Positions 24,311-28,509 of a stretch of DNA of 64,000 nucleotides are shown in pieces (position 1 is the stretch's first letter; each line of letters opens with the position of its first letter). The position numbers were made by a program, and so were the translations under genes. Source of the DNA: Escherichia phage vB_EcoM-UFV06; sequence record OP555980.1. The stretch is one strand, 5' to 3'. The notes beneath the pieces are model-generated. The model saw only the letters and a list, made by a program, of their open reading frames with translations, did not search any database and had not been told where the DNA came from.

Positions 24311-24327
24311 CCGGTAAAATGAAAAAA

Positions 24328-24343
24328 GTCTCCCGAAGGAGAC
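24328..24343 (-). terminator. Intrinsic terminator
   Basis: gtctcc-cgaa-ggagac stem-loop followed by TTTTTT on the minus strand. Confidence 0.65.
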
Positions 24344-24348
24344 TAATG

Positions 24349-25292: not shown

Positions 25293-25874
25293 CTAACCGA
25301 GCTTTTTAGTTAATTCATTCCAATGTTTTCTACACAAAGAAACATAAATTTCATCACCAATACAGATTTGATTACCTTCTTTAACTGGTGTTCCATCTTC
25401 CATTAATCGAGCTGTCATAATCGCTTTTTTACCGCAATGACAAACTGCCTTTAGTTCAATAAGTTTATCTGCAATCGCTAAAAGTTCTTTAGAACCTTCA
25501 AACAATTTTCCAGCGAAATCAGTCCTTAATCCATAAGCCATAACAGGAACATTATATGTATCAACAATTCGACTTAATTGATGCACCTGTTCAGTTTTTA
25601 AAAACTGAGCTTCATCTACAAATACGCAATGAATATCTTTTTGTGCTTCAGCCCATTTATAGAACTCGAAAATATCCATATCATCTGTAATAATATTCGC
25701 TTCCTGTTTAATTCCAATGCGAGAAACAACTTCACAGACAGAATCGCGAGTATCAATAGCAGGCTTAAGAACTAATACACTCATTCCACGTTCTTTATAA
25801 TTATGTGCAGCAGTCAAAAGAGAAGCAGATTTTCCAGCATTCATTGCTGCATAAGTAAAAATTAAACTCGCCAT
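25293..25874 (-). CDS. tk: Thymidine kinase
   Basis: 193 aa; P-loop MNAGKSASLL; CHCGKKA...C..C zinc ribbon. Confidence 0.9.
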   Translation of the reverse strand: MASLIFTYAAMNAGKSASLLTAAHNYKERGMSVLVLKPAIDTRDSVCEVVSRIGIKQEANIITDDMDIFEFYKWAEAQKDIHCVFVDEAQFLKTEQVHQLSRIVDTYNVPVMAYGLRTDFAGKLFEGSKELLAIADKLIELKAVCHCGKKAIMTARLMEDGTPVKEGNQICIGDEIYVSLCRKHWNELTKKLG

Positions 25875-25883
25875 ATCACCTTC

Positions 25884-26069
25884 TTAAAGCGTATTCACAT
25901 AAGCTATTAATTCATTTTCTTTCTTATCAAACCGATCAGCAAATTCTTCCTGCTGCTCGGGAGATAGCGGGCCGTATTCATCATAAAAGGTGTTTGCTTC
26001 TATATGCTCATCTAGAAGTTCATGGATAAGCTCAAACAATTTATCTTTTTGTTCTTTGCTTAGACTCAT
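25884..26069 (-). CDS. Hypothetical small acidic protein (61 aa)
   Basis: ORF. Confidence 0.4.
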   Translation of the reverse strand: MSLSKEQKDKLFELIHELLDEHIEANTFYDEYGPLSPEQQEEFADRFDKKENELIAYVNTL

Positions 26070-26235
26070 ATATTAATTTCCAGGAGTTTTAAAATAATTC
26101 GCTTTTGCTTAAATATTTCCATAGTTAAATGACCAGTATCTTTTTGACCGATTCCAATGGCAAAACCTTTATTAACAGCGAGTTCAATTAAATTATCAAG
26201 CTCACGTAACACTTCGTATTGTAACTCAAAACTAT

Positions 26236-26463
26236 TCATTTTGGTTTACCTTCTTTAACGAAATCAGGATAAGGGTAAAATCCTGAATAAAATCCTTCAC
26301 CTTTATGATTGATGCATCCTTTATTAGAACAATAGCACCAATAATCGAAATCACAAGCCATTTCATCGTTGCATAAAGCAAAAACAACCGGCCACTTACA
26401 CTTTTCACAGTGGGCATTTTTAAGAATACTAGTTTGGCTCATAACCATGTAACCTTTAAGCAA
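26236..26463 (-). CDS. Hypothetical cysteine-rich protein (75 aa)
   Basis: CEKCKW...C..C..C.C...C pattern; preferred over the overlapping alternative frame. Confidence 0.35.
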   Translation of the reverse strand: MLKGYMVMSQTSILKNAHCEKCKWPVVFALCNDEMACDFDYWCYCSNKGCINHKGEGFYSGFYPYPDFVKEGKPK

Positions 26464-26651
26464 TATTCTTCTACATGTTGTTTACGACCTTTCTTATCAA
26501 TAAAGGTATATTCAACGAATGTTCCAATGTAGTCTTTATCTACATCATGTGGACTATTAATTGGACATTTAGTACGGCAAATGCGTTCCCATTGACGAAT
26601 AATTTCCACTTTGTTTTTAGGATCAAACGGATGTGGGTAATGTACTTTCAT
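26439..26651 (-). CDS. Hypothetical protein (70 aa)
   Basis: ORF. Confidence 0.35.
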   Translation of the reverse strand: MKVHYPHPFDPKNKVEIIRQWERICRTKCPINSPHDVDKDYIGTFVEYTFIDKKGRKQHVEEYCLKVTWL

Positions 26652-27102
26652 AATCCACCACTATTAAATCAATATCAGGAGTAAACATGTCGATTAATTT
26701 AGAAACCTTATCCCAATCGCCGCCAGCAATACCACAACCTATGCGTGGAATGTAAATTACTGGTTTAAACAAAAGGGTTTCTGCCTGTAGATTTAATTCT
26801 ATCATGCAGTTTACTAAAGCACCATAATCAAGATTAGGACCTGGTTCGTATTGCGTATACAAGTTATAACATATGCCAAAACCATTAGGTTTATGTTTAA
26901 AAACAATAGACATATCGCCTAATTTATCACGAGAACCGTACTCGGTAGTGGTTTTATCTATTTCTAAAATTTTGGGATAGGCTCTTGCTAATTGACCAGC
27001 TACACCACTGCCCATTGTATGAAAACAATTGCACCCGTGCGCAATAATATTACCTTCAAGAAAGAGGGCGACAATATCGCCCTTGATATATTTTACAATC
27101 AT
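26623..27102 (-). CDS. Macro-domain protein (predicted ADP-ribose binding/hydrolase)
   Basis: KGDIVALFLEGNIIAHGCNCFHTMGSGVAGQL and IGCGIAGGDW resemble macro-domain binding-loop motifs. Confidence 0.55.
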   Translation of the reverse strand: MIVKYIKGDIVALFLEGNIIAHGCNCFHTMGSGVAGQLARAYPKILEIDKTTTEYGSRDKLGDMSIVFKHKPNGFGICYNLYTQYEPGPNLDYGALVNCMIELNLQAETLLFKPVIYIPRIGCGIAGGDWDKVSKLIDMFTPDIDLIVVDYESTLPTSV

Positions 27103-27446
27103 CTAGTACTCAATCCTCGATTATAAGAATCTACCAAACGGTCAACCATTGAATGACAAGCGGCTTTATCTTTCTCCTCCGCAACTGAACATTCTAAGGT
27201 ATTCCACTTTTTAGCATATCGTTTTAATAATGTATCGTTTTTGTATCTGCTTGATTTATCTCTTTCTCCGTCTTTATATGCATATATTAATTTCTGCGCA
27301 AATTCAGCTTGGCATGCTTTATTTTTCCCACAATAATCTGCCGCAGTGCGGTTCACATACTCCCTAATTTCAGTATATGATGTATCTGCTGACGCATAAG
27401 CAGAAAATGAAATTAATCCTATACATAAAACCAAAATTTTAGTCAT
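27099..27446 (-). CDS. Hypothetical secreted/periplasmic cysteine-containing protein (115 aa)
   Basis: Signal-peptide-like N-terminus MTKILVLCIGLISFSAYASA; four Cys; occupies the position where T4 has vs, identity unverified. Confidence 0.45.
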   Translation of the reverse strand: MTKILVLCIGLISFSAYASADTSYTEIREYVNRTAADYCGKNKACQAEFAQKLIYAYKDGERDKSSRYKNDTLLKRYAKKWNTLECSVAEEKDKAACHSMVDRLVDSYNRGLSTR

Positions 27447-27984
27447 TTACTATTTCCAAAAGTTTATTATTTTTAAGGTAGTTAGCCTTTTCTAGGACTT
27501 CAGAAGCATATTTAGAACCTGCTTTAACATTCCATCCCGAATTATAAGAGGATATTGCTTTTCTTATATCGCCCTTATGTATATTTAACCAATAAGAAAG
27601 TTCAATGTACGCCCAGGAAGCTGAATTGGATCGTTTATTCAACATTCTTTTTATTTCAGCATCGGTCATATTATAACCAAGTTCCTTAACTCTTGCTCGC
27701 ATAGTAGGCAAATAATTTTGGAACATTCCATAAGCGTGATGCTTTGGTTTAGATTTTAAATTAACTCCGCCAGAGCTTTCTTGCCATAAAATAGCAGCCA
27801 TTATATGACCTAATCCGCTCTTGTGGATATTTTTATGTGTTTTATATTTTCCATCCTTAGAAAACTGTTCCCCGAATTGATACGCGTAACGCATGTTATC
27901 GAGTTGGACATTACTGAAAGTATGCTCGGAGCTATGTGCCATCATTGAAATGGCCAATAGACCAGCGAGTAGTGCTTTTCTCAT
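27439..27984 (-). CDS. Secreted lytic-transglycosylase-like protein (SLT domain)
   Basis: Signal peptide MRKALLAGLLAISMMAHS; SLT-like motifs WQESSGG, GMFQ, SYNSG. Confidence 0.6.
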   Translation of the reverse strand: MRKALLAGLLAISMMAHSSEHTFSNVQLDNMRYAYQFGEQFSKDGKYKTHKNIHKSGLGHIMAAILWQESSGGVNLKSKPKHHAYGMFQNYLPTMRARVKELGYNMTDAEIKRMLNKRSNSASWAYIELSYWLNIHKGDIRKAISSYNSGWNVKAGSKYASEVLEKANYLKNNKLLEIVND

Positions 27985-27991
27985 GCTTACC

Positions 27992-28453
27992 TCATTGAGT
28001 TTTAATTACTGCTTTAGAAGCCTTTCCTGGTAAACGACGACTGTTAATAATTGCCATCCTGCATTGAAGCGACGGGTCTTTGAACTTCGCATTAGGTTTA
28101 CAAACTGTAAATCCAAGCCAAAGATTTCCATCTGTGATTTCTAAACGTCCAGGACGATATTCAACCCCATCAATAAAATCCTCGTCAATGTCAGGACGCG
28201 GAGGCATACTCAGGAATTCATTAACTTCTAAAACATGGTCTTTTATTTTATGGAATAATTCAAAAACGTATGTCTCATCAATCTCCCGTTGAATTGCGCG
28301 ATCAAGAAGATGTTGAGAATATTTTAGATGAAACGATGAGACCCCTGCTGCTTTTGATGCCTCACGAATCTCATTGTTAATTTGACGAAACTCCGACTCA
28401 AAGTGACGACGAAGCTTATTTCGACGGATAAAAACTTCTGTGTTGATAGTCAT
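27992..28453 (-). CDS. regB: Site-specific RNA endonuclease RegB
   Basis: 153 aa; length, position and sequence as recalled for T4 RegB. Confidence 0.8.
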   Translation of the reverse strand: MTINTEVFIRRNKLRRHFESEFRQINNEIREASKAAGVSSFHLKYSQHLLDRAIQREIDETYVFELFHKIKDHVLEVNEFLSMPPRPDIDEDFIDGVEYRPGRLEITDGNLWLGFTVCKPNAKFKDPSLQCRMAIINSRRLPGKASKAVIKTQ

Positions 28454-28480: not shown

Positions 28481-28509
28481 ATTATACCACAGTCAAGAGG
28501 AAAAGTAAA
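28481..28509 (-). promoter_or_regulatory. Early promoter (sigma70-type)
   Basis: Minus-strand TTTACT, 17 bp, TATAAT. Confidence 0.55.

Follow-up and report, generated by a model that had tools for sequence, protein, structure and literature searches.

The closest described counterpart of the gene analysed here is tk.4 of phage T4, which is annotated as “phosphatase; contains A1pp phosphatase motif”. In a transposon screen (HIDEN-SEQ) of T4 on a host that expresses DarTG2, the only significant hit was tk.4; a clean tk.4 knockout rendered T4 sensitive to DarTG2, and the gene was renamed adfM (AdfM, anti-DarT factor Macrodomain). The source is a preprint in which the DarTG2 defence assay was run under special conditions (M9 glucose, 30 C) and removal of ADP-ribose from DNA by Tk.4 is proposed from structural similarity only (bioRxiv 10.1101/2025.11.20.689424). 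The genetics of tk.4 agrees with the continued DarTG2 resistance of T4 lacking both adfA and adfN (PMC11825919). Another phage macrodomain that bears the name AdfM, gp104 of phage PhiKZ, strips ADP-ribose from DarT2-modified DNA in vitro, and mutation of its conserved asparagine N23 lowers the activity (Cell Rep 2026, PMC13309987). Thymidine-linked ADP-ribose is removed from DNA both by PhiKZ AdfM, which is of Lys type, and by SCO6735 from Streptomyces coelicolor, which is of Gln type (PMC9411070; PMC13309987). In SCO6735, Gln85 is equivalent to K80 of DarG and K84 of TARG1, and the Q85A mutant is inactive; Asn27 is important and conserved in DarG; and Gly128 lies in the phosphate-binding loop, with activity lowered by the G128E substitution (PMC9411070). 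Macro domains are present in about 41% of myoviruses (PMC9503650).

The window, i.e., the entire 64,000-nucleotide stretch of Escherichia phage vB_EcoM-UFV06 (OP555980.1) that was analysed, contains the Tequatrovirus gene tk.4 (adfM) as a 159-codon ATG-to-stop ORF on the minus strand, as established from the ORF list and the translation (Table 1). A plus-strand reading of the same interval was rejected, the interval being packed with stop codons. The gene order regB, vs.1, vs, tk.4, tk.3 is common to the window and T4 (NC_000866), the window protein is 58% identical to T4 Tk.4 over 155 aa (E=4e-70), and the window tk.4 DNA is 100% identical to that of several Tequatrovirus genomes. The identical protein is on deposit as “macro domain protein” (phage G4507) and as “phosphatase” (RefSeq records). 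A preliminary description of this DNA had reported the 159-aa ORF without stating the strand; both sequence motifs that it quoted were located in the translation, KGDIV...NIIAHGCNCFHTMGSGVAGQL (residues 7-38) and IGCGIAGGDW (residues 121-130), and the tk-regB context that it gave holds, with thymidine kinase and RegB placed by strong Pfam matches. However, it missed the identity with T4 tk.4, a gene whose function was assigned in T4 in 2025, and it overrated the novelty of the gene.

From regB to rI.-1, every gene is encoded on the minus strand, with tight packing or overlap between neighbours. The stop codon of vs, a gene to which the Pfam scan assigned no family, overlaps the tk.4 start codon within an ATGA, which suggests translational coupling. 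At the opposite end, tk.4 reads through into tk.3 because of a 13-nt gap relative to T4 just upstream, and the C-terminal tail YESTLPTSV, which is encoded in the tk.4/tk.3 overlap, is of low confidence. The vs.1 protein is 100% identical to its T4 counterpart (dN = 0). The sigma-70-like match upstream of regB (TTTACT-17-TATAAT with TG, an extended -10) is a candidate early promoter of the regB-vs.1-vs-tk.4 run; it is a lead and not proof, because the number of promoter-like sites in this region is not above the shuffled expectation. Downstream of the rI.-1 homolog, a hairpin resembling a terminator likely marks the 3' boundary of the same-strand run, and a putative terminator is annotated at the corresponding position in phage G4507. 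By analogy with this region in T4, early expression of tk.4 as part of the regB-vs.1-vs-tk.4 run is probable. In T4, vs is the most strongly depleted gene in minimal medium (HIDEN-SEQ, bioRxiv 10.1101/2025.11.20.689424).

Between tk and tk.3 (25875-26437, minus strand), the set of small ORFs is not that of T4. Only 25893-26070 aligns with T4 tk.2, with 69% identity, and ORFs of the same sizes are found between tk and tk.3 in T2, T6 and G4507.

Table 1. Positions of genes, motifs and other features around tk.4 in the window
Feature	Position	Strand	Remarks
Terminator-like hairpin	24327..24344	-	Downstream of rI.-1 homolog; consensus scan
Thymidine kinase (tk)	25293-25874	-	PF00265, E=6e-61
DUF7438 ORF	25884-26069	-	Between tk and tk.3
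57-aa ORF	26066-26239	-	No family; between tk and tk.3
Cys-rich ORF	26236-26463	-	Pfam Phage_zn_bind, E=3e-29; T4 lacks it at this locus
tk.3	26439-26651	-	DUF7202, 70 aa
tk.4 / adfM CDS	26623..27102	-	159 aa, single macro domain; stop codon 26623-26625
29-nt overlap of tk.4 3' end with tk.3 start	26623..26651	-	T4 alignment and sequence
Divergence island relative to T4	26630..27060	-	34-72% nucleotide identity per 50-nt bin
P119-R-I-G122-C-G124-I-A126-G-G-D-W130, phosphate-binding loop	26713..26748	-	Alignments to BT1257, SCO6735, TARG1, Poa1p
N80-x-Y82-T83-Q84 motif	26851..26865	-	Invariant columns
H22-G23-C24-N25 codons	27028..27039	-	H22 and N25 family-invariant
ATGA overlap of tk.4 start codon and vs stop codon	27099..27102	-	...GAGGATTGAGTACTAGATGATTG...
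vs, valyl-tRNA synthetase modifier	27099-27446	-	Directly upstream of tk.4
vs.1 homolog	27439-27984	-	N-terminal signal-like sequence; weak SLT lytic-transglycosylase match, E=1.4e-5
RegB	27992-28453	-	PF10715, E=1e-68
Sigma-70-like promoter match	28481..28509	-	Upstream of regB; consensus scan only

The tk.4 product is a genuine macro domain. A Pfam search identifies Macro (PF01661) with 33.1 bits (gathering score, 22 bits; E=6.2e-8) over profile positions 2-117 of 118, the match to PHROG 335 has E=1.6e-71, and a tblastn search detects relatives of Tk.4 in 2,773 phage records. A search of PDB sequences started with Tk.4 identifies BT1257, Poa1p, SCO6735, DarG and TARG1; with a profile of 36 homologs, the same proteins are retrieved with E=2.5e-19 for BT1257, 6e-17 for TARG1, 4e-15 for SCO6735, 7e-15 for Poa1p and 1e-11 for DarG, and coronavirus Mac1 with only 1e-3. 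The AlphaFold2 model, for which the input was the 48 homologs with the T4 sequence left out, has a pLDDT of 93.3 and a pTM of 0.88; strands and helices alternate over residues 2-151, and pLDDT is below 50 for residues 157-159 only. The best Foldseek matches of this model are TARG1, BT1257, Poa1p and DarG, with the probability of 1.00 and TM of about 0.7-0.8; the PDB matches at E<=0.001 number 171, the best 50 of which are macrodomains or designs on that scaffold, and the ranking repeats the order of macro classes in the profile search. The macro region of DarG is the sole match among the PADLOC defence models (4e-7), and antitoxin_DarG is the top NCBIfam match (27.8 bits, far under the cutoff of 250); Tk.4 spans the DarG models only partly, namely, positions 2-142 of 338 in NCBIfam NF048014 and 3-144 of 329 in PADLOC. 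Thus, Tk.4 of the window is a single-domain macrodomain of the ALC1-like class (TARG1/DarG/Poa1p/SCO6735) and not of the MacroD, PARG or viral Mac1 classes. The preliminary description had called a macro domain from motifs and had suggested a Pfam profile search and a structure prediction with comparison to DarG, among others. The call is correct, given the PF01661 score above gathering, the sequence matches to solved structures, and the predicted fold, with DarG among the best Foldseek matches with the probability of 1.00; it was also already known, through existing annotations and the T4 ortholog AdfM.

Among the 48 homologs, down to 39% identity with the window protein, 16 alignment columns are invariant, and the invariant residues include H22, N25, N80, Y82, T83, Q84, P119, G122, G124 and W130; the glycine loops G31-x-G33 and G122-x-G124 are conserved in the alignment of homologs. 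N25 pairs with N23 of PhiKZ gp104 in both the BLASTP and the hhalign alignments and appears to be the counterpart of the conserved asparagine of active macrodomains, its match to SCO6735 N27 following the description in the published paper only; the alignment of a fragment query with SCO6735 (5e3b) is restricted to the C-terminal loop. In the alignment with PDB sequences, H22 pairs with H23 of Poa1p and T29 with S30 of Poa1p. The alignment of the profile to TARG1 puts ‘NlYtq’ opposite ‘YLITK’, i.e., Q84 at the catalytic Lys84, and because of this alignment together with the published statement (PMC9411070), Q84 can be assigned to the position of SCO6735 Gln85 and DarG Lys80, an equivalence that comes from sequence alignment and the literature, with no superposition. 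A126 is aligned with TARG1 Asp125 and with Poa1p Phe152. Given that N25, Q84 and G124 are invariant, and that Q84 and A126 take the place of the Lys/Asp dyad, the active site of the window Tk.4 is predicted to be of the SCO6735 type (Gln) and not of the DarG type (Lys). In the hhalign alignment with PhiKZ gp104, NxYTQ is two residues off register with the FPTK motif, in a low-confidence stretch; this register is unreliable and was therefore left out of the residue mapping.

The reading best compatible with these observations is that Tk.4 enzymatically strips, from thymidines of single-stranded phage DNA, the ADP-ribose that DarT2 has installed there, and we consider this the probable role of the window allele. 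Under this scheme, when a host carrying the DarTG2 toxin-antitoxin system is infected, DarT2 would ADP-ribosylate thymidines in single-stranded phage DNA, and replication would be blocked. The ADP-ribose would be bound in the conserved cleft of Tk.4, formed by H22/N25, the G31-G33 loop and the P119-W130 loop, and the thymidine-ribose bond would be hydrolysed by a Gln-based site, N80-x-Y-T-Q84, as in SCO6735, rather than through the catalytic Lys of DarG, yielding unmodified DNA. We infer that the window allele, at 58% identity, acts as the T4 allele does, catalytically, and the dN/dS between the window and T4, which is well below 1, points to a working enzyme under purifying selection. Because the phosphate-binding loop differs between the window and T4, the specificity could differ as well. 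What counts against this mechanism is that, in the profile alignment, the catalytic Lys of DarG and TARG1 is absent from the window Tk.4. Among the functions put forward in the preliminary description, reversal of host-inflicted ADP-ribosylation draws support from the genetics of the T4 ortholog; processing of a signalling nucleotide and tuning of the ADP-ribosylation performed by the phage itself find no support here.

Three other functions have to be weighed against DNA de-ADP-ribosylation. Tk.4 might neutralise DarT2 by binding the toxin or shielding its product, that is, as a stoichiometric inhibitor without catalytic turnover. There are precedents: the dead Q85A mutant of SCO6735, a single macro domain that shares the Gln type, is still an efficient inhibitor of DarT in vitro, stronger than DarG K80A or TARG1 K84A (PMC9411070), and AdfA and AdfB, phage anti-DarT factors, work through DarT binding. 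Toxin-specific binding could also account for the upkeep of very different tk.4 alleles. Nevertheless, we regard this possibility as quite improbable. In the 48 homologs, invariance falls on the ADP-ribose pocket and the catalytic motif (N25, Q84, G122, G124), and such a conserved pocket is not a plausible variable toxin-binding surface; the C-terminal DarT-binding domain of DarG is missing from this protein of 159 aa, which covers DarG model positions 3-144 of 329; and an enzyme would be effective against every DarT2 variant. A hydrolase of small-molecule ADP-ribose derivatives, be it a Poa1p-like ADP-ribose-1''-phosphate phosphatase, an enzyme that deacetylates O-acetyl-ADP-ribose or one that breaks down NAD-derived immune signals (e.g., those of Thoeris), is a further candidate. 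The older annotation ‘phosphatase/A1pp’ and the ‘phosphatase’ family label in RefSeq and PHROGs would imply the first of these, but this label is an inherited annotation. The Poa1p structures do rank among the top sequence and fold matches, and the Poa1p residues that pair with H22 and T29, H23 and S30, are both mutated in deposited structures; yet the position of Poa1p F152 is occupied here by Ala126, the same replacement as in the deposited F152A mutant. ADP-ribose-1''-phosphate arises via the Tpt1 route of tRNA splicing, and the RNA repair of T4 (Pnk/Rnl) is not known to use this route, which further weakens this explanation. A survey of viral NAD and ADP-ribose metabolism argues that phage macro domains may favour soluble ADP-ribose derivatives (PMC9503650), whereas the phenotype of the T4 ortholog is specific to a DNA ADP-ribosyltransferase, and on balance a small-molecule substrate seems very unlikely. 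A Thoeris II preprint that was considered as a source for a role of phage macrodomains was set aside, as it concerns the macro domain of host ThsA.

The least supported proposal, which we consider the most doubtful of all, is that Tk.4 reverses ADP-ribosylation of proteins or RNA, either the marks set by the phage enzymes Alt, ModA and ModB or those set by host toxins (CmdT, uracil-directed transferases). T-even phages do encode three ADP-ribosyltransferases, but Alt, ModA and ModB target arginine, a linkage that most macrodomains are not known to cleave. TARG1-like macrodomains, SCO6735 included, strip ADP-ribose from uracil in RNA (PMC13036486), and SCO6735 also strips Glu-linked ADP-ribose from protein, according to references given in PMC9411070; in the window protein, however, the Lys/Asp dyad that TARG1 uses for de-modification of Glu/Asp-linked protein is replaced by Q84 and A126. 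With regard to host toxins, T-even phages are robustly restricted by CmdTAC, a system that ADP-ribosylates adenine in mRNA, although they carry tk.4 (PMC11618068); in the CmdTAC paper, macrodomains are named in the reference list only. The adenine modification itself is described as irreversible (PMC13036486).

Comparison with T4 reveals that the two tk.4 genes are different alleles. The flanks of the divergence island are 96-100% identical to T4, and tk.4 codons 1-18 are near-identical in the window and T4; from codon 19 to the end, the Nei-Gojobori estimates are a saturated pS of 0.75 and a dN of 0.44. By comparison, dS is 0.44 in tk.3 and 0.06-0.09 in vs, vs.1, regB and tk. Rapid positive selection was considered as the cause of the tk.4 divergence and rejected, the synonymous sites being saturated and dN/dS well below 1. 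Saturation of the synonymous sites indicates an old cassette acquired via recombination and not fast local evolution. Thus, the window tk.4 is an old allele under purifying selection that was introduced by recombination.

In tk.3, the differences from T4 pile up at the end adjacent to tk.4, and this clustering, together with the raised dS of tk.3, suggests that the exchanged cassette probably reaches slightly into this gene. A strong hairpin of 8 bp, AGGGCGAT-ATT-GTCGCCCT, is located at 27065-27083 (minus strand) inside tk.4 codons 7-13 (KGDIVAL), within the approximately 50 nt of tk.4 that are unchanged relative to T4 while the remainder diverges. The scan marked this hairpin as resembling a terminator; alternatively, it could serve in mRNA processing, exert an effect on translation, or just mark the boundary of recombination.

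The T4 allele is carried by T2 (100% identity) and T6 (98.7%). In the phage collection, the window allele is matched at 90% identity or more by 318 records and the T4 allele by 224; a third class, 80-90% identical to T4 and exemplified by phage mobillu, comprises 159 records. In the phosphate-binding loop, the window sequence GCGIAGGDW is the family consensus and the T4 sequence GAGIGKGNW is the outlier. It is conceivable, albeit unlikely in our estimate, that the window-type and T4-type alleles, which are 58% identical, with 65 differences, and are exchanged as cassettes among Tequatroviruses that otherwise hardly differ, are specificity variants, each matched to a different DarT2 family or a different ADP-ribose linkage (uracil in RNA or another base). 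If so, the locus would be a balanced polymorphism driven by diverse ADP-ribosylating defences of the hosts, and the mechanism of the Gln-type phage enzyme would differ from that of DarG.

The assignment of the tk.4 function in T4 in 2025 was followed in 2026 by the biochemistry of a second, unrelated macrodomain from a phage. The gene described here fits a general theme, in which phages carry orphan copies of antitoxin-like enzymes that undo the chemical damage inflicted on DNA by defence systems. What keeps this gene of interest is the biochemistry of the Gln-type phage Tk.4 enzymes, along with the deep polymorphism of alleles at the tk.4 locus.

Compared with the known systems, Tk.4 shares the fold and class, and presumably the substrate, ADP-ribosyl-thymidine in single-stranded DNA, with the DarG macrodomain (PDB 5m31, 5m3i, 7omu), from which it differs by the invariant Gln84 in place of Lys80 and by the absence of the C-terminal DarT-binding domain of DarG, a protein of roughly 330-350 aa. 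No gene for an ADP-ribosyltransferase or darT was detected by Pfam next to tk.4 among the 8 flanking genes scanned. PhiKZ gp104 is likewise a phage orphan macrodomain that counters DarTG2 and possesses the conserved asparagine (N23 vs N25); unlike Tk.4, it is Lys-type and DarG-like, with the FPTK motif, and is imported into the phage nucleus. The homology between gp104 and the window Tk.4 is detectable at the profile level only (hhalign probability 96%; a BLASTP alignment of 23 residues). Given this distant relation and its Lys type, gp104 is not a close proxy for the window Tk.4. The two AdfM proteins, PhiKZ gp104 and T4 Tk.4, are analogous orphan antitoxin-like enzymes that share a name by function and are not orthologs.

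The human TARG1/OARD1, BT1257 from Bacteroides (2afc/2fg1), which has no known function, and yeast Poa1p (6lfq-6lfu) possess the N-terminal KGD...H.C motif and the PRIGCG loop as in Tk.4; the Lys84/Asp125 dyad of TARG1 is replaced by Gln84/Ala126, and Phe152 of Poa1p by Ala126. The closest named bacterial homolog, with 40% identity, is encoded on the Pelagimonas phthalicica chromosome (L005, 5001-5459). Like the genes for SCO6735 and BT1257, it is an orphan macro-domain gene with housekeeping-type neighbours, and no DarT was found beside it at this single bacterial locus inspected. SCO6735 (PDB 5e3b) resembles Tk.4 in being an ALC1-like, standalone protein without a DarT partner; its N27/Q85/G128 set matches N25/Q84/G124 of Tk.4, and the PRIGCG[LI]AGG.W loop is near-identical in the two proteins. 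The overall sequence similarity is modest (E=8.6e-8), and SCO6735, unlike Tk.4, is encoded by a bacterial chromosomal gene tied to the DNA-damage response and antibiotic production. T4 Tk.4/AdfM, the allele for which alone the DarTG2 function has been tested, lacks the 4-residue C-terminal extension of the window protein that overlaps tk.3; it shares with the window protein the position in the vs-tk.3 locus, the single macro domain of about 155-159 aa and the complete set of family-invariant residues.
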